The notes under the pieces were generated by a model that saw nothing but the letters and a program-made list of their open reading frames with translations, was not told the DNA's origin and ran no database searches. The translations under genes were made by a program, and so were the position numbers. This document shows, one piece after another, positions 1,239-25,500 of a DNA stretch of 64,000 nt; the first letter of the stretch is position 1, and the number at the start of each line of letters is the position of its first letter. Source of the DNA: Vermamoeba vermiformis (Eukaryota); the NCBI GenBank assembly GCA_045837725.1, contig JBEWZL010000056.1, positions 62,001-126,000 on the forward strand, given 5' to 3'.

Positions 1239-1983
1239 CTCCTCGTATAAATACGAATCCTATTAGCATAATAAGACCTTTACTCTTGAGCTAACGATAA
1301 AATAGATAAAATTTTGGCCAAGCAAAATTCTTTAGTTTTTGACCGTTACAAATGAATCAGCAATTAATGACGCAGCAACAGTATCATGCCACATGTGTGT
1401 TTTATTATCGAAAGATACGCGTCGTTGAAAGTTGCAATGCTTTCAAGATTTGCAAGGATGTCTACCGTTGCGCGGTGAGGGTCCTCTCGCTCGTGCAAAC
1501 CGTGTAACACGTTGGACAACGATGGTGGAATATTAACACAGTTATCTAACCAGCTCTTACATTGCTAGGTAAGGCAGTTTTGACTCTAAACCAATCAGCT
1601 TTTTTATCTTTCTTACAAAATTTACAAGGCTAATATTCTTAGCGAAATAATGTTTTTGTGCATGTTTATCAACGCGCACGGGGTGAGAGGAATTTTTTTG
1701 AAGCAAATGTGGACTTTGAGACTCTCACAAGATGCGATCTGCAATGCTAAGCCCGTGCTCACCAATTTTGTCGTTCCGATCGTCAATTACCCATGAAATG
1801 TCGCGATGTTGATGCAGCCGTTATTCCTGACAGGCGAATTTTGCTGGACGAGGCCTCGATCTCGATGAATTTTCTTACAGTTTCCTTCCATATGAACATT
1901 GACAATGTTTGGCACCTGCAACATATAAAAGCCTTCGTTTGTTGCAACATTCATTATTTTATTACATAGCAAATACAAACAAC

Positions 1984-4788
1984 ATGTTGGCGACTTCAAT
2001 CATTTCCAAGCTGAGCACGGAGCAAATCCGAGTTTGGCCTGGCAGATCTTATCCTCTCGGCGCAAGCTGGGACGGTGCTGGCGTTAACTTCGCTCTTTTT
2101 AGCGAGACAGCTGACAAAGTCGAGCTCTGCTTATTCGATAGCGCTAATGACCAGAAAGAAAAACATCGTGTCTTGATGCAATGGAAGGACGACTACGTTT
2201 TCCACTGCTTCTTGCCTGATGCTCGTCCTGGTCAAATTTACGGCTTCAGAGTGCACGGAGAGTACGATCCTTCCAAGGGTAAGCGGCTTTTCTACCACAT
2301 TGCATTTCGAAAAATTTTCAGATTTCGCAAATCTTTTTGTTAATTTCTACGCTTCAAGAAGATATTGATTATCAATTTATTAATAACTAATATTTAAATA
2401 TAGGTCTTCGCTTCAATCATAACAAGGTTTTGGTCGATCCCTACGCCAAGGCAATTGTCAGACACGCAAAATGGCACGACTCCATGTTTTCTTACAAAAT
2501 GGGCAGCGATGACTTTGCTTTTGACGTATGCAATTACATTGAATATTTTCCATCGATAAATCGAATCCGTAATTAACGGTAGAAATTTCTTGCTTTTGCG
2601 CGCTGGATGCGGATTCCTTTTGGAGTTTTGCTAATTTGACAATATTAGGATACTGACAATGCTGCTTACTGTCCCCTCGCAGCTGTCGTTGATGATGCAT
2701 TCACTTGGGGCCACGACTCTCAGTTAAACATTCCCTGGAACAAAACCGTGATCTACGAAACCCACATCCGCTCATTGACCATGACGCATCCAGAAGTGCC
2801 TGAACATTTGCGCGGTACTTACGCTGGTATGTGCTTCGAGCCTATTATCAACCACTTGAAGGATTTGGGCGTCACTGCTGTAGAATTGATGCCAGTGCAC
2901 TATCATATTGACGAGCGAAACCTTGTCGATCAAGGCTTGTGCAACTTCTGGGGCTATAATACTCTTAGTTTCTTCGCGCCCGATAATAGGTATGAATATA
3001 TAGTGCATTTTAAGAGGATATTTCTATCTATTTTGAGACGAATCTAACTTGATCCTCGCAGATACGCTCACACCGACAATCCTCTCGAGGCTGTTTCAGA
3101 ATTCAAGACTATGGTTCGTATTCTCCACAGTCACGGCATTGAAGTCATTCTCGACGTCGTTTACAATCACACTGCCGAAGGAAACCACATGGGTCCTACT
3201 TTCAGCTTCAAGGGCATTGATAACAGAGCTTACTACCGCGCTGTCGAAGGCGACGCTCGATATTACTTCGATTATACTGGTTGCGGTAAGTATTATAAAT
3301 CTAAAACTCATCGCGTACCGGAGATCTGATCTTCCTTTTTAGGCAACTCTTTGAACGTTCGTCATCCTCGTGTTTTGCAACTCATTATGGACAGCTTGCG
3401 TTATTGGATTACTGAAATGCACGTTGACGGTTTCAGATTCGATTTGGCCAGCACTCTCGCTCGTACTTTTTACGAAGTCGATAAATTGGGCGCGTTTTTC
3501 GACATTATCCACCAAGATCCGGTCATCTCTAAAGTGAAGCTCATTGCCGAGCCTTGGGATTTAGGAGATGGTGGCTACCAAGTCGGTAACTTCCCCGTGT
3601 TGTGGACTGAATGGAACGGTCGCTTCCGTGACGGATGCAGATCCTTCTGGAACGGCAAGGGCGTAACTTTGACTGAATTGGCTAACAGATTGGCTGGCAG
3701 TCAAGACCTTTACCAAGACAGTGGTATGTATATAGCCGTTATCTACTTGGAACTAGTGCTAATTTTATCGTGTTAACTAGGTCGTGCTCCATATGCCAGT
3801 ATCAACTTTGTCACTGCTCACGACGGTTTCACATTGTACGATCTCTGCGCGTACAACGACAAGCACAACGAGGCTAACCGCGAAGACAACCGCGACGGCG
3901 CTAATGATAATATGAGCTGGAACTGCGGTGCTGAAGGCGAGACGTCTGACTTTGAGGTCAACGAACTTCGTTGGAGACAACGTGCTAACATGATGGCCAC
4001 CATGTTCTTGTCATTGGTATGTGCATAATAGGCCCCGTTCTTAATAGACAGACACTAATGTTGCGTTAATAGGGTGTCCCTATGATCTCTGGTGGCGACG
4101 AGTTGTCGTTCACTAAAAAGGGTAACAACAACACGTACTGTCAAGACAATGAATTGAACTACTATGATTGGAACATGGAAGACGAGTTCAAGGTCGAGTT
4201 CTTGGACTTCACTAAGCGCTTGATCAGCTTGCGAAAGAGATTCTCCGTCTTGCAACGTCGCAGATTTTTGTCCGGAAACCCAGTTGGTATTTCAGGCTCG
4301 AAGGACATTACTTGGTTCAATCCTTCTGGCGCCGAGTTGTCCAACGATGAGTGGCACTCACCGAGCACGCAATGCATTGGTTATATTATGGAAGGCAGCG
4401 CGATCAACCAAGTTACTGAGCGAGGCAAGGCTGTCGTCGGTGACACTTTGTTGGTTTTGATCAACGCTCAATTCCACGACGTTAAGTTCAGCATTCCCGA
4501 GCACTTCACTAAGAAGCCATGGTAAGTTATGCTCATAGTATTCATAGTATTTTAATTTCGTTGCTTCCACATGTGGATCCGAACAGCTTACTGACAAAAA
4601 TTTTTTCTCTTAGGACTTTGATTTTGACAACGTCCCTTCGTGACAAGGATAAGACTGGTTACCGATACGAAGCTGGTGATGAATTCGATGTGCAACACCA
4701 CAGCTTGGCTTTGTTCATTATCTCAAAGCGAAATTACGGCTCTATGGTGGAACTCACTAGCAGCAGCGAGTGGTTAGAGCTCCATTAA
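1984..4788 (+). CDS. glgX: Glycogen debranching enzyme / isoamylase, bacterial GlgX type (GH13), about 7 introns
   Basis: [60 protein letters not shown], and catalytic motifs [23 protein letters not shown], then [10 protein letters not shown] and [11 protein letters not shown]. Exons are joined by GT-AG introns (e.g. 2279-2403). Confidence 0.95.
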
Positions 4789-4868
4789 AAATACCTGTAA
4801 TAATTAATAAAACAATTACCAACCAGATTTTTTGGTCCAAAAATCAGTTTATTGCCACCAAGCCGTAG

Positions 4869-8879: not shown

Positions 8880-9966
8880 AATTTATATAGATCATATTGG
8901 ATTACTTTTAATGGCTATCGTACTGATTTTATTTTTGACGATCCAGATCCAGCGATTAAAGTGTGCATTGTGTGCTATTAAAGTGCGAAATTTCTTTGAG
9001 AAAATACCTGACGAGAATACATCAACTAAAATATAATCGATCAATACCTTACAAGTGCAACACCTGCTGAATTTGTATGGATCCGTTTGGATCAGACAAA
9101 AAATCAACTTTATTTGTTCCCAGTACAATTTTAATACGCTTTAATACGAAACTTTTAATAAGAATGTTATCGCTAAGCAGTTTTTTAGCCGGTTGACGAA
9201 TGCAGGTGGGAATCTTCGGATTCAGGTACGATATCACTCTCTTCCTTCTTCGTGGACATCAAGTGCGGTGTGCGGGAGTCTTTATGTTCCCGTAATATAT
9301 TTTAATAATTAAACCACAAATGATCACTTCCGGGTCGACTACTTACTTTTTGGGGTTAAGTTCCCCAAACTCACTTCTGTTCCAGCTCCACTCTACCTTA
9401 TTTTCAGTACTTATTATTTCATTATAAAACGAAATGTCTGGCAGTTGACCAGAAAAAATGAAGCCTTAAAAATCGAGATCGGTACGGATCGTTCCAGAAA
9501 ATTTCGCAGTTCCTCTGGTGTTTAAGCCAATATTATTATTTTCTGTCGACTAAATCTTTGTAACAAGATAACAACAATGAGCAACGTAGCGCAGATTCTT
9601 CAAGCAGGCGACGCCATCACCTTTATGGAAGTAAGTTCAAGAACGAGTGAAAGGGTATAAGCGAAATCTGTTCGCTAATAACTAAAATATAGGCCGGTGT
9701 CAGATCTCCTTATATGGGATTTTGGTTCATTGGGCTTGAAAAATACCAGCAAAAGAATTTTGGTCGGGCAGATGTGTTTTGGAGACGATTTGATTTGTTC
9801 GGTGGCCTTCAAGTAAGAAATATATTATCTTATTTAACAATTTAACAATTAAATTATTTAATCGTTATTCTAAAGGAGTACAAGTTCACAAATGGAGTTT
9901 GGGGATTTGACGCAAAAACGGATTCAGTTCACATTGACATTATTAAAGAACAGTACTCCTACAATA

Positions 9967-10214
9967 TGTAACGTAAGAAATTACCCGTTGAAGACTTTGC
10001 GCGGATTCGCTATTACCCGGATCGCGTAATTGAATAACATTATTTGAATAATCCAATATCCTAATAGGCTAAATAATATTATTAATAATTATATTAGCCT
10101 AAATAATAATCAAAAAGTATAAATACGCTACTCGCGTAGCGAATCTCTTTGTACCTCTCTTTTATATAATAAACAACACATCTCTTTGTTGTAACAGCTT
10201 ATTTATTTGTTACA
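9967..10214 (+). repeat. 5' LTR of the Gypsy element
   Basis: Reads as identical to 20063-20310. TG...CA termini, internal TATAAATA and AATAAA, inverted repeat TAGGCTAA...TTAGCCTA. Confidence 0.97.
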
Positions 10215-10215
10215 T

Positions 10216-10230
10216 TGGTTCCGATAACGG
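10216..10230 (+). promoter_or_regulatory. Primer-binding site, probably for tRNA-Glu
   Basis: TGGTTCCGATAACGG lies 1 nt after the LTR. Its reverse complement CCGTTATCGGAACCA ends in CCA and resembles the TATCGGA acceptor stem of eukaryotic tRNA-Glu. Confidence 0.7.
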
Positions 10231-10863
10231 ATCCTATCCGATTCTTCACGCGACAACACTTTTCAACTCACATCTGACATCCGACATCCGCTGACATGTA
10301 CACTCGTCGAAGACGCACCCGTGGACGTGGCTCTCGAGGAGGGAGACAATCAATCTCTGCCCCGCAATCACCTTTGGTATCTCCTGCTAACAACAATACG
10401 CCCGCTGGATCTTCAGCTGAAAGTCAGGATGAGGCCCCATACGACTTCGCTGAGGGAGGAGAATTTCGTGACGTGCATGGTAATAATGTACATATTCCGC
10501 CGCAACCTCCTGTCAATAACCAGCAAGTTCCGCCTGTTGGAGTGGCTGATCCGAATCCGAATCGAGCGGAGAATGGAATTCTTTTCGACATCCAACGCAC
10601 TCTACATCGGTCAAACCTCGCTATTGAACGTCTCAGTAACCGCTTGGACATATTTGAAGCTCGTATGGATCGACAAGAGACTTTGCTTCATATGGCTCGC
10701 AACGCTGCTCGGAACAACCCGCAACCTGGCCTGGATCAGCAGCAGAGACAACATAATCCTCCTCAACAATCGTTTAGAGTCGAGGACAAGCACTTCCCGC
10801 AAGCAATCAAGCCCTTTACTGGCAATGGTGAACCTTCTGCCGAAGAGTGGATCAAATCCGTGC

Positions 10864-11058
10864 AGCTACAGTGACGCAGCACTTAGCGTATGAATAGGCC
10901 AAGCGGATCGGTTTTTGGCAGCCCTGGTGGAGAAGTCACGTGCGATTCACACCAAAATTGGAAGTTCGAGGAAATAGAAGTGTCGAACGCCAACGCCAAG
11001 ACTACCACAAGGCTCGTATATTTGACAGAGCCTAATATTTATTTGTTAATTTTTTCTT
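10864..11058 (+). repeat. Split direct repeat A1 (195 bp)
   Basis: Matches 15229-15423. Confidence 0.95.
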
Positions 11059-11080
11059 AATTCGGAAATAAATTTCAACG

Positions 11081-12463
11081 ATGACTGCGAGACAATCGTT
11101 TATCCAGAACCTAGTGGAGACACTCAAGACCCCACTACTCTCAAACTGGCCTGAAGCGCGACTCTGGAAGCAAGCTCTGGGATCCGTGAAATGGTCGATC
11201 ATAGATCAGGCTGGGTCAGATGTGGACCAGCTTCGCTTCTTATGCTCCCTGGCGTTGGCGTACTGCTTAGGAGGGGAGTTTGATCAATTGGAGCGCAGTC
11301 CAGCAGTGTCGAAGGAGGAAATCTCTCGGATCTACTCCAAGGCGGCAGATTTAGTGGAGGATCCGGAGCTGTTGCCGTTGTTGGCCCCAGTGACTAAACG
11401 GGTGGAGAATTGGTCGTCCCAGGGACCTCCTCAGCCAGTGGATCGCCCATCGGAGTCTCCTGAGAAGATCAACTCGGATGGCGACCAAGATTCAGAAGAC
11501 TCAGACAGTACTGAAGCGGAGATTGCCCGAGCTGTCCGAGAGTACATGAAGAAGAAGCGCAATAAACGGCAGAAGATCGGAGAGTCTCAACCGAAGACCC
11601 CTGCTACAGCTCCAGCAGTTCAGATCACGGATGTCCCCCCTCCTAGCGCTTTGGCGAAAGACCCTAAGGTGGCGGCGGGTGCTGACGCACTTATCGCCCA
11701 ATTGGAGCTCAAGTTGTCGTCGATGAAATCGCAGTTGGACTCGCTAGCCGGGAGCCTCGTTCCCCAGAGCCCCATCAACAACTTGCTTTTGCCTCAGCCC
11801 TGGGGCCAATCTTTGATCCACGGAACGTCGAAAGCCACCCCTGTTGGTCAACTGGCGGACGTCCAAGCGACAGTCGAGCTGAGGAAGCCAGGCCAGGTCT
11901 ATCTCCCGCGCTGTTTCACCAAGGAGGCATTGGAGAAGAGGTTGCAACCCTCGCAGGCTAAGGTCCCACAGAACGCGGAGGATTATATCCGAGCGTCGTG
12001 GGAAGTCAAGGACCTCCTCGAGAAGGAGGAAGGTTTTGTCGAGCGAGATTACAATGCCTTTGTCCGCTGGATCGTGGAGCTTGGTGATGGCTACGAATGG
12101 CTCTCAGTTATGGCACTGGACGAGCGCCTCAGATCGCTCCAAGCAGTGGGCAAGCTTCGCTGGAAAGACAGGCCCTTGGAGAGCCTCTTCACTACTCTTC
12201 GAGCGCGTCCAATTCATCAACGTGCCGAGGCCAAGCAGGACAACAAGCCCAAGGCCTTTTCAGGCACCAAGAAGAAGAAGGGTGTCTGCTTTGCTTTCAA
12301 CGGTCACAAGGGTTGTTCGAAGAGCTCTGATGCATGCGAGTACTCTCATTCTTGCTCTGACTGTAAGTCCTCCAATCACAATGTCCTTCATTGCTCCAGT
12401 GGCCCAAAAGGCCATCCCGGCAAGACGAGTTCATCGGGCGCGTCTGCGGAGCGCCGGGAGTAG
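11081..12463 (+). CDS. Gag-like ORF1 of the YR retrotransposon
   Basis: 460 aa with a C-terminal Cys/His finger CFAFNGHKGC...CEYSHSCSDC...HNVLHC and a YEWLSVMALDERLR block typical of DIRS/Ngaro gag. Confidence 0.85.
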   Translation: MTARQSFIQNLVETLKTPLLSNWPEARLWKQALGSVKWSIIDQAGSDVDQLRFLCSLALAYCLGGEFDQLERSPAVSKEEISRIYSKAADLVEDPELLPLLAPVTKRVENWSSQGPPQPVDRPSESPEKINSDGDQDSEDSDSTEAEIARAVREYMKKKRNKRQKIGESQPKTPATAPAVQITDVPPPSALAKDPKVAAGADALIAQLELKLSSMKSQLDSLAGSLVPQSPINNLLLPQPWGQSLIHGTSKATPVGQLADVQATVELRKPGQVYLPRCFTKEALEKRLQPSQAKVPQNAEDYIRASWEVKDLLEKEEGFVERDYNAFVRWIVELGDGYEWLSVMALDERLRSLQAVGKLRWKDRPLESLFTTLRARPIHQRAEAKQDNKPKAFSGTKKKKGVCFAFNGHKGCSKSSDACEYSHSCSDCKSSNHNVLHCSSGPKGHPGKTSSSGASAERRE

Positions 12464-14025
12464 AGATCGTAGCCCGCTCTAGTGCAGTGACCCTCCGCTT
12501 CAATCAGTGGAAGAGATTCTTGGTGGGGGACTCTGACGCCGACTTCCTGACCGACATTTTCAAGCCTGGTGGTGGCCTTCGAGTTGTCAAGGAGGGTGTG
12601 GCTGTGCCAGCGTCTTTCTTGCCGAACTACGCTAGTGTCTTGGAGTGCGAAGACTTCATCCACCAAGACATTATGACGGAACTAGAGAAGGGTTTCATTG
12701 CAGTACTGCCAGTCCAACCATACAAAGTCAATGCTCTTGGTGCAGTCAAGAAGAGCGAAGGCAAGTTCCGTCGCATTACTGATCTCAGTCGCCCAAAGGG
12801 TGCGGCGTTGAATGAATACATTGATTTGGTCAATTTTCAGTTTAGCACGGTCGATGATGCATGCGACTTCATAATGGAAAACCCTTGGGTTTTTGGCTGC
12901 AAGTTCGACATTGAAACAGCTTATCGTCATGTCCCGATCTGGCCGGGTGACTGGCATTACTTTGGCTTCGAGTGGCGTGGCACCTTCTACATCGATCTGC
13001 GCCTCTGCTTTGGTCTAGCTTCAGCTCCTTACGTTTTCTGGAGAATTTCTAATTTCATTGTCCGAGTAGGCAACAAGTTCTTTAACGTGGCCTTCATTTT
13101 GCCCTACATTGACGACTTCCTCGTGCTTTCTGTTGGCACTGACTCTGATGCTGCACGCGCTCAAGCTTGGAAAGACTTCGTCAATTTCCGCGAGTGTCTA
13201 ACCGAATTGGGTTGGCCAATTTCAGAGAAGAAGATGGTTGAGCCCTGTCAGGATCTGGTCTTCCTTGGCATCCGCATCAATATGCATGATCGCATCATTT
13301 CTTTACCAGAAGACAAGCTAGCTGACCTTCTCGACATTCTACGGAGCTTCAAGGATCGAGTTTCGTGCACTAAGCGCGATCTGGAGCGCTTGATTGGTAA
13401 GCTCAACTTCGGCGCTAAAGTGATCAGGGGCGGACGCACTTTCCTCCGCCGCATGATCATCCTGGCCAACTCGGTCCCAGAGCGACATCACGTGGTGTCT
13501 CTAGACGATGAATTCCGTGCAGATTTGGATTGGTGGCTTCGATTTGCGAGCGCCTGGAATGGCAAAGCCGTTATGCTGGACCCAATGCCCATTGACATGC
13601 GTCGGTTTGAGGTGGACGCCTCAAATAGTGCTGCGTGTGCTATCTTCGACAAGCACTTCATCGTGCGGATCCACGACCCTTTGACATCTGCGTGGCACAT
13701 CAATGATAAGGAGTGCCTTTCAGTCTACTTGGCTGCGCTTCGCTGGGCCCCAGAATGGGCCAACAAGCGGGTGATCGTCTCATCGGACAATACCACGACC
13801 GTTTCGGCCATCAACAAGGGGTCTTCAGCATCCCCAATCATCATGCGAATGCTACGGTCTCTGTTTTGGCTATCAGCGACACACAACTTTCACTTGACTG
13901 CGGTCCACGTACCGGGGGTTCTTAACGACCTGGCAGATGCGGGTTCGCGATTGAATTTCGACAAACTGATTGACAAAGGGCTCTCCATGCAGTTGTGCCC
14001 CGAGTTTGATCCAGAATGTCTTTGA
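12391..14025 (+). CDS. Reverse transcriptase / RNase H of the YR retrotransposon (no N-terminal ATG)
   Basis: KFRRITDLS, KFDIETAYRHVPI, LCFGLASAP, YIDDFL, FLGIRI; RNase H motifs VDAS, HINDKE, SDN, HVPGVLNDLADAGSR. Confidence 0.95.
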   Translation: MLQWPKRPSRQDEFIGRVCGAPGVEIVARSSAVTLRFNQWKRFLVGDSDADFLTDIFKPGGGLRVVKEGVAVPASFLPNYASVLECEDFIHQDIMTELEKGFIAVLPVQPYKVNALGAVKKSEGKFRRITDLSRPKGAALNEYIDLVNFQFSTVDDACDFIMENPWVFGCKFDIETAYRHVPIWPGDWHYFGFEWRGTFYIDLRLCFGLASAPYVFWRISNFIVRVGNKFFNVAFILPYIDDFLVLSVGTDSDAARAQAWKDFVNFRECLTELGWPISEKKMVEPCQDLVFLGIRINMHDRIISLPEDKLADLLDILRSFKDRVSCTKRDLERLIGKLNFGAKVIRGGRTFLRRMIILANSVPERHHVVSLDDEFRADLDWWLRFASAWNGKAVMLDPMPIDMRRFEVDASNSAACAIFDKHFIVRIHDPLTSAWHINDKECLSVYLAALRWAPEWANKRVIVSSDNTTTVSAINKGSSASPIIMRMLRSLFWLSATHNFHLTAVHVPGVLNDLADAGSRLNFDKLIDKGLSMQLCPEFDPECL

Positions 14026-15091
14026 CAGCGGAAGATTACATTGGCCTCGGCTATGTGGACTCCACGGTCAAGGCCAGGCAGGCAGTGGTTTCGGCCTTTG
14101 CCAGGTTCTGCTACGCTTCGAATCGAACATTCTTCCCGACGAACGAGTTTGTCCTGGCCGACTACGCGGCATATCTTGCAAATAATGGCGTCAAGGCAAG
14201 TTCGATCAAGACATACTTGACAGCCATTTTCGCTTTTCAACAGTTGCATGGTGGCCCACACCCAGCGCGTGACAGCCTTCGCCTCAAGGTGGTCCTCAAG
14301 GGCATTAAACGCGCGCAGTCCTACACACCGTCGAGCAAGCACCCTCTCACTCCTGTGGAGTTGCTCAAACTCAAGGCGTGCTTAGACTGGTCATCATCTC
14401 TCCACCGCACTTTCTGGGCTTGCCTCGTGGTCGGCTTCTGGTCTTTTCTTCGGGGTGGAAACCTTGTGCAGAAATCTGCGAAGAAATTCGACCCAGCAAA
14501 GCATCTCAGCGCGTTGAACTTGTCAAGGAACGAGCGTGGTTTCTTAATTTCGCTCAATCGAACGAAGACAGTCCAATTCAACGAGAGAAGGCTGATCATC
14601 CCGCTGCTCTCAGTACCGGGAAATGCGCTGTGTCCCGAAGTGGCCCTGGAGGCGATGTGGGCCTTGTGTCCCATGCCTGAATCGGGGTCGATTTTTTGTT
14701 TTAAAGGTGATGACGGTAGAGTTATGCCGCTGGTGCACTCGAAGCTTAACGATAGTAAGTATCGTGGCAGTAGTTGCATATTGTGCTTACTTACCTGTTT
14801 TCTCCAGTGATCAAGAAGACCTGCCTTCAGTGCGGGTTGGATCCGAAGGATTTCTCCGCACACTCGCTGCGTAAAGGTGGCACGACGGGAGCCTTCATCG
14901 CGGGAGCGGACAGGGTGATGGTCAAGGCTCAAGGAGACTGGGTGTCAGACGCCTACATGCGTTACGTCACTTTTTCTCTGGATCAGCGCTTGTCAGTCCC
15001 ACAGGCGATCATCGAGGCGATGAGAACTCCTCAATTTTTTGAGCGCTGCTCTTCCTTGTCTCTGGCGACGGCGGCGGCAATCTATCAATGA
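14016..15091 (+). CDS. Tyrosine recombinase, join(14016..14754,14808..15091)
   Basis: SAM-like N-terminus (ASSIKTYLTAI), catalytic R (FLRGGNL) and K (RTKT) in exon 1. HSLRKGG and GDWVSDAYMRY in exon 2. Intron GTAAGT...CTCCAG. Confidence 0.92.
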
Positions 15092-15120
15092 TCTGGTTTG
15101 GGGGCTCGTTCGCTGTGTTT

Positions 15121-15228
15121 GGGGGCTTTGGTGCTCTCGTTAGCCCCAACCCGTGGCGGGGGGTGACGGGGAGCCACCACCCCTAATAAAGCTGAATTTA
15201 CCCCCACGAGCAGCGCAGGCATTCGTGC
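15121..15228 (+). repeat. Split direct repeat B1 (108 bp)
   Basis: Matches 15457-15564; GC-rich; contains AATAAA. Confidence 0.95.
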
Positions 15229-15423
15229 AGCTACAGTGACGCAGCACTTAGCGTATGAATAGGCCAAGCGGATCGGTTTTTGGCAGCCCTGGTGGAGAAG
15301 TCACGTGCGATTCACACCAAAATTGGAAGTTCGAGGAAATAGAAGTGTCGAACGCCAACGCCAAGACTACCACAAGGCTCGTATATTTGACAGAGCCTAA
15401 TATTTATTTGTTAATTTTTTCTT
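15229..15423 (+). repeat. Split direct repeat A2
   Basis: Matches 10864-11058 and directly abuts B1. Confidence 0.95.
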
Positions 15424-15456
15424 TTTAATTTTTATTTTTATTCACGTTGTACAATA

Positions 15457-15564
15457 GGGGGCTTTGGTGCTCTCGTTAGCCCCAACCCGTGGCGGGGGGT
15501 GACGGGGAGCCACCACCCCTAATAAAGCTGAATTTACCCCCACGAGCAGCGCAGGCATTCGTGC
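15457..15564 (+). repeat. Split direct repeat B2
   Basis: Matches 15121-15228 and forms the right end of the element. Confidence 0.95.
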
Positions 15565-16320
15565 GCTCATTTATCGAAGACCAAGAAGGATGGACCGAAG
15601 CTATGAAGAAACAAGTCTTCTATTGCAGAACAAGTGATGGTGCTTATAATCACTTGGTTATCGCTAGTTTGGTATCAAGCGACATACTTTCGAAGAGATC
15701 TTGACTGAAATTCTCAACGAATATGGTGGTGGCAACCAAGACATGGTAAACTCGCTTCATATGAAAAATCTTGAGCAGTCTGACACTGAGACTGTCTCTG
15801 AATATTTTATGAGATTTTACAAGATCGCATCCAGAATTTCGAACCGATCTGACAGCGACAAAATGCATGATTTTATTTCAGGACTTCGTCTTGATATTCA
15901 AGAGTCCGTCGTGCATAAACAGCCCACCTCATTACATCAAGCTGTCGAGTTAGCTAAGAACGCTGAAGCCTGGACCGCGATGTATGGCAAGAAGAGAAAG
16001 AACGCTGCCAAACCTGCCCCGGTTCAACAAACGACCGTCAAGCCCTTCTTTTTCAGCAGAAACAATGGTCAATCGCCTCAACGCACGAACCCAATGGTCA
16101 CATCTGGATCTCCTCAGAATAATTCCAAAGTCGCGACTCCCGCTGCGACAAGCAAGTCAAATCAAGCTGCGACGCCCAAGACACCTGCGCCTAGCAACTT
16201 TGCCAAGAGACTTGACTACAACACCCCTTACCGCCCGCAACAGTTCAACAACATTGACGCATCCGAACTGGATCTTGACGAGAATTACGTTTTGGACGAC
16301 GATGAACTTGACGTCGACCA

Positions 16321-19300
16321 GGAAAACGACCAGTTGGAGGAGTAAATGGCTCGCCTCACTCCTTAGAGCAAGAGCCTTACAGCTCAATACCCTTTGAACT
16401 ACCCATTCTACAGCCCGACTACAACCCTTACCCAATCAAACCTCTCATCATACCTGCCTTTGTTCACAACATATTATCCGACACTTTATGGGATACTGGC
16501 GCCTCAAGATCGTTCGTCACCCCAGATCTCGTCAACGAACTCAAGATCAAGACTCACGCTGGTACACTCAACGTCAAAAACTCAAATCAACAACGGACAA
16601 CGCTCACTCACTATGCAATTGTTCCTATTCGACTCACTAATGGTTTCTCTATGGACTTCAAATTTTGGATCAACGACAAAATCAACTTTCCGCTAATTTT
16701 TGGTATGGATCTACTTAACGTCATGAAGCCTGTTCTGGATTTCGAGACTAGGCAAGTCTATTTTAAGCCTAGGATTATTCCCTACTCACCAGACAATATC
16801 ACGCGCGATACAACGATCATTCAACTGGAACGAGATCTACGCGTTCCCGCTCGCTGCGAGATGCGCTGCTCTTTACCTACTAATATGGCTGATGGTACCT
16901 CTGGTCTCATTGAACGTGCCGAATCTATCTCTGATCAATATGGCGTTACTTTGGCTCACAGTTTAACGACATCCAAAAATGGAAATATTATTGTCCGATT
17001 CTTAAATCCTCACGATACGGACATTATCATCAAGAAGAACACCAAAATTGGTCGCATAGTGCCCTATGAATTGCTTAATGAATTCTCTGACGAAGACTGC
17101 ACGTACACACAAGAAGAATTCTTCGCACCGTTCAAACTCGAAGAACGCTACAAACACTTGACTGCGCAACAACTAGAAATGCTCAAAAACACTATTTGGA
17201 AATGCCGCAACGCCTTCTCTTTTGGTTCTGACGCTCAACCTGGTTTAACTGACAAAGGAGAACATCGCATTGACCTTACTGACGAAACTCCGTTCAAACA
17301 GCATGCTTATCGCGTTCCGTACACTCAACGTGAATTCATGAAAGAGAAAATCGATCAAATGCTGGCTCAAGGCGTCATCTCAGTCTCGTCATCGTCATTC
17401 GCTTCACCTGTGGTTTTGGTTAAGAAGAAAGATGGCTCTCTACGATTCTGTGTGGACTATAGAAAACTCAATGGCGTAACTGTCAAAGACTTATATCCGT
17501 TGCCGAGAATTGACGACATGCTAACTTTACTTAACGGCAATCTTTATCTCTCAACACTAGACGCAGAAAATGGCTTTTGGCAGACCCCACTAGTGCCTAA
17601 AGATCGTCACAAAACTGCTTTCATCACTCCGTTTGGACTCTTTGAATTTAACCGGATGCCGTTTGGTCTTTGCAACGCTCCGTCAACATTTCAACGTCTT
17701 ATGGATGTGGTACTCTCTGGACTATTATGGCAAATCTGTTTGGTATATATGGATGATATTATCGTATTTGGACGCTCGTTCGAAGAACACTTACTAAATT
17801 TGGAAACCGTACTCAAAGCGCTCATCACCGCTGGTATCAAGCTCAAGCCCAGCAAATGCAACTTTTGTCAGGAAGAACTCAAATTCCTTGGTCATATCGT
17901 ATCAAAAGATGGCATTGCTACGGATCCAGAAAAGATCGAGAAAGTCAAGAATTCCCGAGAACCAACCAACGTCGAAGAATTACGCTCTTTCCTTGGACTT
18001 ACTGGTTACTATAGAAAATTCATTCAAAACTATGCTAATATCGCAGAACCTCTCATTCTACTCACCCGTCAAAACAACGCTTGGAAATGGGATCTCGCTC
18101 AACGATCCGCTTTCGAAGAGCTTAAGAAGAGGTTAACAGAAGCACCCATTTTAGCTCATCCCGATTTCGACTTGCCCTTCATTCTCTACACTGACGCTAG
18201 TTCCGTTGGACTTGGTGCCGTTTTATCACAAATTCAAGATGGAAAAGAACGCGTAATTTCGTACTGGTCCTCGACACTTGACCCTGCTAAACGAAATTAT
18301 TCCGCTACTGAAAGAGAATATATGGCCGTCGTCGAAGCTGTCAAGAATTTCCGTTACTACTTACTTGGAAAGAAATTTGAATTGGTCTTGGATCATCAAT
18401 CACTCGTCTTCTCACGCACTATGAAAGATGGAAATCAACGACTACTCAAATGGAGCTTATTTTTGCAAGAATATGATTTTGACATCGTTCATCGCTCAGG
18501 AAAATCACACTCGAACGCAGATGCACTCTCGCGATTGCCGATCGTCACTCTCAACAACATAATTGAAGAAGAAGTCGACATGCCCATCAATTTCACGACA
18601 GAACAAATCCAACAAGCCCAAGCTTTGGACCCTCTTATCAAGCCGCTCTTGGATCTCGTCACTACTCGATCCAAATCTAAAAATAGAAAGAAACAAAAGA
18701 AGTTAGAAGATTTCGTGGTCGAAGATGGCATATTATATCGCAACTATAGACCTAGTGGCATCGAAGAATTAATTCAGCGACAACTGGTACTTCCGCTCAC
18801 GCTCCGACCTCAGATCCTGAAATTCTATCACGATTCCGCTATTGGTGGTCATTTTGGATTCATGAAAACATATGGAAAAATTAGAGAACGCTTCTACTGG
18901 TTTGGAATGGCTAAAGATATTCAACACTACGTCTCATCTTGCGAATCCTGCTGTCGAAGGAAAATTCAACGCAAGATCTTTGGTGAACTCACTCCAATCG
19001 TCGTAAGCGAACCCTTCGAAATATTAGGAATGGATCTATTAGGTCCCTTCAAACCAACCAAGCACGGAAATAGCTACATTCTCGTCATGAGCGATCACCT
19101 GTCAAAATGGGTCGAAGTTTTTCCGCTCGCCGAAATTACATCAGCTGACATCGCTAAAATCTTGGTCGAAGAAGTAATTTGCCGCCATGGCTCCCCTCAG
19201 AGAATTCTCACTGATCAAGGCGACAATTTCAACTCGCAACTCGCTCATCAGATCTACAACATTCTCGCTGCTAAGAAAATGCGCACTGTGGCATATCACC

Positions 19301-20067
19301 CTCAAACGAATGGACTCACTGAACGCTTCAATCAGACTCTCGCTCAACAACTCACTCCGTTCGTCAACGAGAAGAAATTTTCAATTGCCTACAAAGTCGC
19401 CAAGCAAAACGTTGCTCAACGCAACGCTGATCTCAAAGAAGACAAGAAGTATCTTTACAAGAAGAAACAGAAGCTCAAACCGAAAGACATAGTCTGGTAC
19501 GCGCTCGCAAAACTTCCGCCTGGAACGACGAAGAAATTGGCTTATCGCAACATTGGTCCCTATGAAATCGAATCACTTCGTGGCAACAACGCACTCATAG
19601 TTAGTCCCACTGATCCAAAAGATAGACTCTACGTCAACGTTGGACAACTACGACTTCAGATCCCTCGCCGAAAAGAATTGGATATGGAAATTTCATCTTC
19701 TACCGATGAAATCTTACCCGCCGCTGATGACACGCCGCCTACACCTCATCAACGATCGCCGCCTGCGAAAACTCAACGAAAAACCACTGCCCGAAGAAGA
19801 AAATCTCCGTCAGATCTACTGCTCGAAAATCTACGCCTTATCTACACCTCAGTTCGAGATGGTGAAATGCTCAACGCATTCAAGACATCGCTGAAAGAAG
19901 CTATTGGCGAAGGTAGTGCCTGGACTACGTCAACGAAAGTCAAGAAACAATGGGAAAATCAGATCGTCACTGCAAGCACCGCTGCCGCCCTCAAAGAACT
20001 CATCGACAAATTCATCAAAGAAAATAACTTGGAGGACCAAGTCAAAGCTAACGAGGGGGTAATGTAA
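16321..20067 (+). CDS. pol: Gypsy pol (PR-RT-RNase H-IN), probably expressed by -1 frameshift; integrase appears internally deleted
   Basis: The frame is open upstream of Met 16651 and contains protease LWDTGAS. RT LRFCVDYRKLN and YMDDII; RH YTDAS and NADALSR; IN HHCC, GMDLLGP, TDQG, NGLTERFN, IGPY. The stop lies within the 3' LTR. Confidence 0.93.
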   Translation, partial: GKRPVGGVNGSPHSLEQEPYSSIPFELPILQPDYNPYPIKPLIIPAFVHNILSDTLWDTGASRSFVTPDLVNELKIKTHAGTLNVKNSNQQRTTLTHYAIVPIRLTNGFSMDFKFWINDKINFPLIFGMDLLNVMKPVLDFETRQVYFKPRIIPYSPDNITRDTTIIQLERDLRVPARCEMRCSLPTNMADGTSGLIERAESISDQYGVTLAHSLTTSKNGNIIVRFLNPHDTDIIIKKNTKIGRIVPYELLNEFSDEDCTYTQEEFFAPFKLEERYKHLTAQQLEMLKNTIWKCRNAFSFGSDAQPGLTDKGEHRIDLTDETPFKQHAYRVPYTQREFMKEKIDQMLAQGVISVSSSSFASPVVLVKKKDGSLRFCVDYRKLNGVTVKDLYPLPRIDDMLTLLNGNLYLSTLDAENGFWQTPLVPKDRHKTAFITPFGLFEFNRMPFGLCNAPSTFQRLMDVVLSGLLWQICLVYMDDIIVFGRSFEEHLLNLETVLKALITAGIKLKPSKCNFCQEELKFLGHIVSKDGIATDPEKIEKVKNSREPTNVEELRSFLGLTGYYRKFIQNYANIAEPLILLTRQNNAWKWDLAQRSAFEELKKRLTEAPILAHPDFDLPFILYTDASSVGLGAVLSQIQDGKERVISYWSSTLDPAKRNYSATEREYMAVVEAVKNFRYYLLGKKFELVLDHQSLVFSRTMKDGNQRLLKWSLFLQEYDFDIVHRSGKSHSNADALSRLPIVTLNNIIEEEVDMPINFTTEQIQQAQALDPLIKPLLDLVTTRSKSKNRKKQKKLEDFVVEDGILYRNYRPSGIEELIQRQLVLPLTLRPQILKFYHDSAIGGHFGFMKTYGKIRERFYWFGMAKDIQHYVSSCESCCRRKIQRKIFGELTPIVVSEPFEILGMDLLGPFKPTKHGNSYILVMSDHLSKWVEVFPLAEITSADIAKILVEEVICRHGSPQRILTDQGDNFNSQLAHQIYNILAAKKMRTVAYHPQTNGLTERFNQTLAQQLTPFVNEKKFSIAYKVAKQNVAQRNADLKEDKKYLYKKKQKLKPKDIVWYALAKLPPGTTKKLAYRNIGPYEIESLRGNNALIVSPTDPKDRLYVNVGQLRLQIPRRKELDMEISSSTDEILPAADDTPPTPHQRSPPAKTQRKTTARRRKSPSDLLLENLRLIYTSVRDGEMLNAFKTSLKEAIGEGSAWTTSTKVKKQWENQIVTASTAAALKELIDKFIKENNLEDQVKANEGVM
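20053..20062 (+). promoter_or_regulatory. Polypurine tract
   Basis: GAGGGGGTAA immediately before the 3' LTR. Confidence 0.75.
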
Positions 20068-20310
20068 CGTAAGAAATTACCCGTTGAAGACTTTGCGCGG
20101 ATTCGCTATTACCCGGATCGCGTAATTGAATAACATTATTTGAATAATCCAATATCCTAATAGGCTAAATAATATTATTAATAATTATATTAGCCTAAAT
20201 AATAATCAAAAAGTATAAATACGCTACTCGCGTAGCGAATCTCTTTGTACCTCTCTTTTATATAATAAACAACACATCTCTTTGTTGTAACAGCTTATTT
20301 ATTTGTTACA
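20063..20310 (+). repeat. 3' LTR of the Gypsy element
   Basis: Reads as identical to 9967-10214 and is followed by TSD CAATA. Confidence 0.97.
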
Positions 20311-24292: not shown

Positions 24293-25500
24293 TTATTTCT
24301 TCTCGTCTAAGTGGGTGTTGTCGTCATCAGGCAGGACTTGTACTTTGTGTCTATAATACAGCCCGTCCTTGCTCATCGTACTAGACTTCAATTTGTACCA
24401 TAATGTATTTAAGCCACTTTTTTGCCATAATTTCCTCGATTCTTCTAATTTTTCTAAATTTTCATCTCGAAAAGTCGTGGATGCGGACTTATGACCAGCA
24501 TTTAACGAGTAGAATAATGAAGGTCTTGATGAATACGTTAACTTCAATCCCGCCAATTTAATTCTGTAGCTGAAATCGTCATCTTCGCCTCCCCAGCCCC
24601 AATAATCATTCGAATAGCCATTTATAGCCACAAAATCGGCTCTATTAACGCACGTGACTGTTCCAGCGAATCCTCTATAAATATATTTCCATCCTATAGT
24701 TAAGAACGTTAGCCAGATTGCTCGATCCAAAGCTTTATTTTATTTTAATTTTAATTTTCAAGTTTAATAGAATCCATGTTATTAATATTAACAATTATTT
24801 TGGACGCTTGATATTTTTATGTCGATCGCGTTGTTGGACTGATTTATTAAAGTTTTAAGATTGCATTTCGTATATTTTCGGTTAAAGAGTCATATTCATA
24901 GGGTTAGCCTTACCAAACTTTTGAATGAGCACGCCAAGCTGTCTAGGCTTCTCAGGATATGAATAATCAACGCATGGTGAGGCTGGAATAGTGTCTACGT
25001 CATGAAGACAAAAATAATCGTGATTTGATTGCGTCAAGTTGAATCCAATATTTAGTAGCTTGGCTCTATTGAATATATGCATGTCGTCTTGCTCTATTAC
25101 ATGAATAGAGAATTTTATGTTGAGATCCTGAAAAAACGCGTGCATCATTTGAGAAAAGGCTTGAAGGTGCATTTCGCGGTTTCTGAATGGTACTAATATT
25201 GCTAATGTATGATTACTATCGGGAGCATTATCATATCTATCTTCAGGACCTTGACAAAGTCTCGAATCTGTATTCAAAAATTAGATCCAAATACGGATTT
25301 GAAACAAAAAAGAGTTAAACTCACATAATTTATTCATACCGTGTAAAATAATTATAGTAATATTATATGTACATACCAGAACATTCTGCGGGTTCCCAAG
25401 TCGGTCCCAGAAAAAATTCAATGTTATAGGCGATCAGCAAGCCCAACACCACTAAAAATAATAGCGATATAACCACACGCAGCAACATAGGCCTAGCCAT
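24293..25500 (-). CDS. Beta-1,4-galactosyltransferase family (GT7), type II membrane protein
   Basis: LAILVPFRNR, FNRAKLLNIGF, CLHDVD, INGYSNDYWGWGGEDDDF; N-terminal TM exon from ATG 25500. Confidence 0.9.

Follow-up and report, generated by a model that had tools for sequence, protein, structure and literature searches.

A predicted spliceosomal intron, conserved in position and sequence, divides the tyrosine recombinase gene of a Ngaro-like retrotransposon

Introduction

Ngaro-like retrotransposons are defined, in passages of PMC13465315 and PMC6681497, by split repeats in the order A1...B1-A2-B2 and by the absence of a methyltransferase domain. Here we describe one such element, a tyrosine recombinase (YR) retrotransposon of the order DIRS, in a 64,000-nt stretch of Vermamoeba vermiformis DNA that we call the window (contig JBEWZL010000056.1, positions 62,001 to 126,000 of the forward strand; coordinates below count from the first base of the window). 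The recombinase gene of this element is divided by 53 nt that we interpret as a spliceosomal intron. How retroelements can retain introns has long been puzzling, since an intron is erased whenever spliced RNA is copied. Marker-intron assays with DIRS-1, as outlined in a section of PMC7192593, exploit exactly this erasure.

Introns have been described in several retroelements. Excerpts of PMC1636488 and PMC4209133 report them in transcripts of Penelope, Athena, L1, Tad and kangaroo-1. The last of these, from Volvox carteri, is a YR retrotransposon with split direct repeats, and the introns in its transcripts are mentioned in a passage of PMC1636488 that cites Duncan et al. 2002. It is established, according to part of PMC3735527, that the RNAs of the retrotransposons copia, BARE, Ogre and CRR are spliced. 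The surveys of the DIRS and Ngaro families that we examined mention no intron in these elements: neither "intron" nor "splic" occurs in PMC3783388, PMC3266345 or PMC9210276, and in PMC6681497 and PMC4157794 "intron" is absent and "splic" appears solely in unrelated passages. A full-text literature search, with supplements and subscription papers outside its scope, did not turn up any Ngaro or DIRS recombinase described as having a conserved intron.

Results

The recombinase is encoded on the forward strand in two pieces. Exon 1 (14016-14754) carries an N-terminal SAM-like domain and the catalytic Arg and Lys. Exon 2 (14808-15091, with a TGA stop at 15089-15091) carries the HxxR motif, the Trp and the nucleophilic Tyr. 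The 53 nt between them (14755-14807, +) have the makeup of a GT-AG intron: a GTAAGT 5' site (14755-14760), branch-like CTTAC motifs at 14787-14791 and 14791-14795, a pyrimidine (T/C-rich) run, and a final CAG whose AG occupies 14806-14807. The CTTAC motifs lie 12-16 nt upstream of the 3' site. The intron would be in phase 1, because the last base of exon 1 (A) opens a codon that exon 2 completes with TG. The open frame that contains exon 1 (frame 0, 14010-14810) enters the 53-nt stretch and stops at the TGA at 14808-14810, and the remainder of the recombinase lies in a second frame (14774-15091). Exon 2 has no start codon upstream of the HxxR motif.

We located the catalytic residues by aligning a profile of 15 natural full-length relatives to Cre recombinase. 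The match covered almost the full length (profile positions 10-300, E-value 1.8e-15). The Cre-equivalent Arg (FLRGGN) and Lys (RTKTVQF) fall in exon 1, and the His-x-x-Arg (HSLRKGG), Trp (GDW) and nucleophilic Tyr (RY) fall in exon 2. The break between an R/K half and an HxxR/W/Y half, proposed in a preliminary description of this DNA from its letters alone, is therefore where the Cre alignment places it. Pfam recognized Phage_integrase in 5 of the 15 full-length relatives and found no family in either half of the window recombinase taken alone. The full catalytic set (R, K, HxxR, W/H, Y) is assembled only when the intron is removed. Read without splicing, the gene encodes a truncated recombinase of 246 residues plus a short tail, which ends before the catalytic Tyr, as had been anticipated.

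The flanking DNA bears eukaryotic genes with introns, and these provide a local standard. We mapped five introns in an isoamylase gene against a 98%-identical intron-less protein (P0166). They measure 72, 57, 57, 56 and 92 nt. Their 5' sites are, in the same order, GTATGA, GTAAGT, GTATGT, GTATGT and GTAAGT, their branch motifs are CTAAC, CTGAT, CTAAT, CTAAT and CTGAC, and all end in YAG. The recombinase intron fits this profile, although it is slightly shorter. The earlier statement that 53 nt is the size of host introns is approximately right, although the value sits just under the range of the five verified examples (56-92 nt).

We compared the recombinase to 24 close homologous proteins (47-100% identity). 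Sixteen are interrupted at exactly the same codon position: 13 end 2-21 residues past the junction, and three (P0007, P0018 and P0286) carry an 18-residue in-frame insert exactly at it. The P0286 interruption must be genomic, because this protein is encoded on a 477,798-nt contig. The other eight homologues are continuous and align to the predicted spliced product with no residue extra or missing, so that removing the 53 nt yields the clean, colinear frame that had been claimed. These uninterrupted proteins contain no counterpart of the 53 nt, whereas a counterpart would have been expected had the interruption been a simple frameshift in this copy. More distant recombinases (≤36% identity) are also continuous. 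The same interruption, in the same codon phase, reaches relatives with as little as 48% protein identity.

The interrupted proteins retain a trace of their splice sites. All 16 read through the junction first into S, C or R. Codons for these residues can take the form NGT, which a GT in phase 1 requires. The next residue is K, T, M or E, which implies 5' sites of GTAAG, GTACN, GTATG or GTGAR. A metagenome scan provided DNA for two relatives, L001 and L002 (81-82% protein identity), and only these; genome contigs and viral contigs provided none. Both loci keep the interruption at the same site and phase as GTAAGT...TAG with a length of 66 nt, which answers the earlier suggestion that sister copies be checked for the intron. 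GT...AG borders are thus present at all three loci with readable DNA, and agreement of this extent goes well beyond chance. The length of the interruption drifts among relatives while its boundaries and phase stay fixed. A private frameshift is excluded.

The subclade of P0007, P0018 and P0286, represented by proteins only, has a 54-nt interruption that is open in frame and is placed after the Lys region and before the HxxR region. The inserts of the three proteins are alike, with R-E at the start, L-G in the middle and T near the end. Because the 54 nt are open, unspliced RNA in this subclade would encode a full-length recombinase with 18 additional residues.

A maximum-likelihood tree of the exon-1 region (23 rows; near-duplicates P0014-P0017 and fragments P0064 and P0289 were excluded) separated 19 close relatives from four outgroups with 99/99 support. 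The interruption is present in 14 of the 19, and the five rows without it form two clades, (P0005, P0011) and (P0013, (P0019, P0287)). The tree as drawn needs three changes, for example one gain and two precise losses, and its well-supported branches alone force one. A single origin of the intron is compatible with the well-supported branches. Interrupted and uninterrupted rows belong to separate supported groups, and none of 500 shuffles clustered the interruption label as tightly as observed. This favors an inherited state of the DNA over a mixture of DNA-derived and RNA-derived records.

We examined selection on the two exons by comparing the window to L002. The proportions of nonsynonymous (pN) and synonymous (pS) differences were 0.132 and 0.778 in exon 1, and 0.085 and 0.773 in exon 2. 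Identity at 4-fold sites was 33/99 in exon 1 and 13/42 in exon 2. Synonymous sites are saturated between these two elements. When exon 2 was read in its shifted frames, pN rose to 0.27 and 0.30, above pS, and stops appeared. Exon 2 is strongly constrained in a frame that, by our prediction, only splicing reaches. The low pN in this frame and the lack of a start codon before HxxR argue that exon 2 has been translated in the intron-removed frame through a long divergence during which the intron was present in both lineages. Purifying selection also acts on the first open reading frame (ORF1; pN 0.286, pS 0.723 against L001) and on ORF2, which encodes reverse transcriptase (RT) and RNase H (RH; pN 0.156, pS 0.754), and for this reason we conclude that the element lives by reverse transcription. 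That the intron has persisted while synonymous divergence reached saturation implies that the copied RNA is the unspliced form, in agreement with the preliminary description.

The intron sequence is itself conserved. It is identical to L002 at 48 of 53 positions and to L001 at 47 of 53, compared with 46 of 141 (0.326) at 4-fold sites. Its interior (14761-14787), which lies outside the splice signals, matches L002 at 24 of 27 positions and L001 at 23 of 27. Against the neutral benchmark of 0.326, binomial probabilities are approximately 2e-18 (whole intron) and 2e-9 (interior). The first 20 bases are compatible with the read-through tail of P0003 (77% identity). Over its first 45 nt the intron is 89% identical to L001, which places this stretch among the top 2.5% of 45-nt windows in an element whose overall identity is 68%. 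Windows that equal or exceed the intron are 12398-12442 (98%), the start of A1 (96%) and 13033-13077 in ORF2 (91%), with 10969-11013 in A1 and 14632-14676 in YR exon 1 level at 89%. We considered two other causes of this conservation. A local recombination patch was rejected because synonymous differences reach both intron borders. Protein coding in the read-through frame was also dismissed, given that the tails vary in both sequence and length. Since the interior itself is under purifying selection, it most likely carries a cis-acting signal, and the conserved intron looks, from these comparisons, like a functional cis element. The preliminary description had missed this conservation, which changes the likely mechanism.

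Sequencing reads provided a view of other copies. In a DNA run of the species, 97% of the element's words are present. One 2148-nt Logan contig covers 13003-15150 with no differences at a word depth of 992, compared with 306-315 for flanking contigs (approximately 3x). In several Logan contigs the A repeat continues into different sequence, consistent with additional insertion sites. No intron-less joint is listed among the Logan contigs of this run, although contigs can hide rare variants. A search for sequencing runs that contain the element listed no RNA run. In three RNA-seq runs that carry the same species label (approximately 13 million reads each; the presence of the organism in them is unchecked), no reads mapped to 10700-15700.

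Taken together, we assign a probability of roughly 80% to the interpretation that 14755-14807 is a real U2-type spliceosomal intron and that its removal is required for production of the complete recombinase. Several observations weigh against it. Splicing is inferred entirely from comparison, and no spliced RNA has been seen. The CTTAC motif fits yTnAy but not the CTRAY form shared by the five host branch motifs. L001 and L002 amount to one effectively independent DNA comparison, since they are almost identical and differ at only 7 of 738 nt in exon 1. The intron is missing from 5 of 19 tree rows and 8 of 24 proteins and is therefore not essential to the life cycle of the family; these eight uninterrupted proteins may be genomic or may come from assembled transcripts. 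Folding and complementarity analyses of the intron gave nothing significant: a hairpin that pairs the 5' site with the CTTAC region had a z-score of -1.59, with 16 of 200 shuffles as good, the L002 intron folded with a z-score of -0.36 alone and with flanks z-scores were -0.32 and -0.14, and when the intron was compared with the remainder of the element, its direct and inverted matches (8 and 9 nt) did not exceed in length those of shuffled introns.

The last two of these observations would suit an intron that is real and spliced but is a neutral relic. The template RNA would then simply escape splicing, through fast export, packaging or cis-preference, and there would be neither a switch nor a signal. 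Two clades of the family live without the intron, the intron lacks significant structure or complementarity, and short introns require some minimal sequence in any case. A neutral spacer should nevertheless have diverged, whereas 23-24 of the 27 interior positions are identical against a background of 33% at 4-fold sites, and the intron ranks among the most conserved stretches of the element. We consider a neutral relic unlikely.

A second alternative makes the truncated recombinase, with its DNA-binding domain and half of the catalytic domain, the main product. It would serve as a regulator or inhibitor, and rare splicing would license integration. Third-intron retention in the Drosophila P element is an analogous case. 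The unspliced frames of the window, L001 and L002 all end 6-18 residues past the junction, and exon 1 is well conserved. The read-through tails, however, are unrelated in sequence and length, and no truncated protein would arise in P0007, P0018 or P0286, where the 54-nt insert is open in frame. We regard this alternative as very improbable.

Slightly less credible still is translational recoding, in which no splicing occurs and the ribosome bypasses or shifts over the gap. In phage T4 gene 60, the ribosome bypasses a 50-nt coding gap. The element probably recodes already at the ORF1/ORF2 overlap, and the intron-less relatives show only that the gap is non-coding. Against it, the gap is 53, 54 or 66 nt long depending on lineage, yet it always has a GT-compatible start and ends in AG wherever the end can be read. 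We found no matched pair of take-off and landing codons and no stop directly past the take-off site, and the signals in the gap equal those of host introns. Finally, we considered a dead copy whose recombinase gene was disrupted by an insertion or frameshift private to it. This idea, suggested by the broken frame and by the lack of a Pfam family in either half, is refuted by the same interruption in 16 of 24 relatives and both DNA relatives, by strong purifying selection on exon 2, by the youth of the copy and its otherwise open ORFs (described below), and by the absence of a counterpart to the 53 nt in uninterrupted homologues.

The predicted intron belongs to an element of approximately 4.7 kb (10860-15564) with the repeat order A1...B1-A2-B2. 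The A1 terminal repeat (10860-11058, +) begins with a GTGC crossover core (10860-10863), and its first 45 nt are those that share 96% identity with L001. BLAST and a repeat search matched 10856-11058 to 15221-15423 (203 nt, 99.5% identity), the latter being the A2 repeat (+). They also matched B1 (15121-15228, +) to B2 (15457-15564, +) over 108 nt with 100% identity. The 3' end of B1 overlaps the start of A2. An AATAAA motif is present in each B repeat (15185-15190 and 15521-15526), and B2 ends in a GTGC core (15561-15564) that forms the right end of the element. G+C content is 52-54% in the element and 33-40% in the flanks. A 207-residue antisense open frame (14321-14944, -) spans the intron and is probably a by-product of the G+C-rich coding strand.

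Two ORFs precede the recombinase. ORF1 (11081-12463, +) is gag-like with a Cys/His-rich C-terminal part and matched no Pfam family. ORF2 (12367-14025, +) encodes the RT and RNase H in 552 residues, compared with 554 in L001. Pfam detected RVT_1 (E-value 4.3e-08, above the cut-off) and a weak RT_RNaseH match that fell below the cut-off (E-value 0.0063, residues 431-496 of 552). No further Pfam family, and thus no methyltransferase domain, was found in ORF2, where the approximately 55 residues beyond the RNase H match leave no room for one. By its repeat architecture and domain content, the element is a Ngaro-like YR retrotransposon.

The ORF1/ORF2 overlap contains a candidate -1 frameshift heptamer in the frame of ORF1, C CCA AAA (12403-12409, +), with a GC-rich stretch on its 3' side, and ORF2 lacks an early Met. 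No other 45-nt window of the element is as conserved as the surrounding 12398-12442 (98% to L001, as above), which is likely a programmed -1 frameshift site for a gag-RT fusion, the shift itself being deduced from these features. The recombinase ATG lies 7 nt ahead of the ORF2 stop in the -1 frame (14016-14025). Unless the recombinase has an mRNA of its own, this overlap points to termination-reinitiation or to a second frameshift.

The element sits within the gag gene (identified by Pfam) of a Ty3/gypsy element at 9966-20310. The gypsy long terminal repeats (LTRs; 9966-10214 and 20062-20310) are 249 nt each and 100% identical, and its pol ORF (16312-20067, 1251 residues) is intact and encodes protease, RT, RNase H and integrase. 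The gypsy element is broken solely by the Ngaro-like insertion, and its gag frame is continuous over the insertion point once the latter is removed. The two insertions are very recent, nested transposition events. We examined the insertion junctions (10850-10863 and 15550-15570). The target and the internal B1|A2 junction (15217-15232) share the GTGC core and agree at 7 of 8 bases around it, which suggests that the recombinase has some target-sequence preference. No target-site duplication was found at either junction of the element. This footprint fits integration of a circular intermediate by a tyrosine recombinase. The 99.5-100% identity of the split repeats, the nesting, the open ORFs and the GTGC junctions without duplication together indicate a young, intact copy that was integrated by an active recombinase, and it looks active itself.

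Two host genes in the window deserve mention. The isoamylase gene that supplied the reference introns (1900-4800, +) is of the bacterial type, belongs to the isoamylase/GlgX family and has at least five short introns. Its closest proteins include transcriptome-derived eukaryotic entries and many bacterial ones, with approximately 80% identity over the catalytic piece, and the host lineage may have acquired the gene long ago from bacteria. A GT7 galactosyltransferase gene (24293-25280, -) has its Glyco_transf_7N and Glyco_transf_7C domains in separate ORFs, split by an apparent AT-rich intron of approximately 181 nt (24733-24913, -). This is much longer than the five verified host introns. Lacking a homologue check, it was left out of the host intron set.

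Discussion

We propose that the intron would be a long-heritable part of one clade of Ngaro-like YR retrotransposons. Full-length recombinase would be translated only from spliced RNA, and unspliced RNA would yield the gag-like protein, the RT/RH protein and a truncated recombinase. Unspliced RNA would also be the RNA that is reverse-transcribed, as it must be because every new copy keeps the intron. The intron signal could set the ratio of spliced to unspliced RNA, or it could mark unspliced RNA as the replication template. Ratio control or template marking is the cis function we favor on the strength of the conserved interior. The idea that splicing acts as a switch on integration, raised in the preliminary description, is plausible.

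A more elaborate form of this proposal is possible, though we hold it only tentatively and would bet against it. The intron might be a self-preserving control module, in which a cis signal in its interior, present only in unspliced RNA, is bound by a protein of the element that both restrains splicing and selects the template. Rare spliced RNA would be the sole source of active recombinase, and the truncated form could be inhibitory. The intron could not then be lost, because a copy derived from spliced RNA, missing the signal, would be a dead end. If true, this arrangement would represent a new division between template and messenger RNA in a retroelement that is neither an LTR element nor a retrovirus. 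In retroviruses, the packaging signal lies downstream of the major splice donor. There, too, a cis signal is confined to unspliced RNA and replication is limited to that RNA; the parallel is an analogy only.

Within one family of recombinase-bearing retrotransposons, an intron that is more conserved than the surrounding silent sites has come through many rounds of replication, in a position that would make the integration enzyme depend on splicing. Its 53 nt offer an experimentally tractable handle on two questions about the poorly understood DIRS and Ngaro elements: which RNA serves as the template and how it is chosen, and how recombinase dosage is controlled. The intron also carries a warning for annotation. 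Prokaryote-style gene calling truncates these recombinases, and the intron is where 13 of the 24 database proteins stop.

We compared the element to known systems. It shares with Ngaro-like elements, as characterized in parts of PMC13465315 and PMC6681497, the A1...B1-A2-B2 repeats, a gag-like ORF, RT/RH without a methyltransferase, a YR ORF in last position and the absence of a target-site duplication. kangaroo-1 is also a YR retrotransposon and is reported to have introns in its transcripts, so an intron in this order has a precedent (passage in PMC1636488). The intron described here lies within the YR catalytic domain, which it divides, and both its position and its sequence are conserved across a family; kangaroo-1 enters this comparison through a one-sentence citation. 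Penelope-like elements likewise keep spliceosomal introns through replication, according to sections of PMC4209133 and PMC1636488. They differ in having a telomerase-like RT and a GIY-YIG nuclease, and those sections do not report their introns as splitting the catalytic domain of an integration enzyme or as conserved in sequence.

The spliced LTR elements offer a further parallel. In Ogre, CRR, BARE and copia, as in the scheme proposed here, splicing decides which proteins are made and unspliced RNA replicates (part of PMC3735527). These are integrase-bearing LTR elements of plants and flies in which splicing separates gag from pol or sits between ORFs. In the Ngaro-like element, in contrast, splicing would join two halves of the catalytic domain of the integration enzyme. 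Introns in retroelements are thus known from Penelope, Ogre and kangaroo-1, and what is new is an intron, conserved in position and sequence, that splits the catalytic domain of a tyrosine recombinase.

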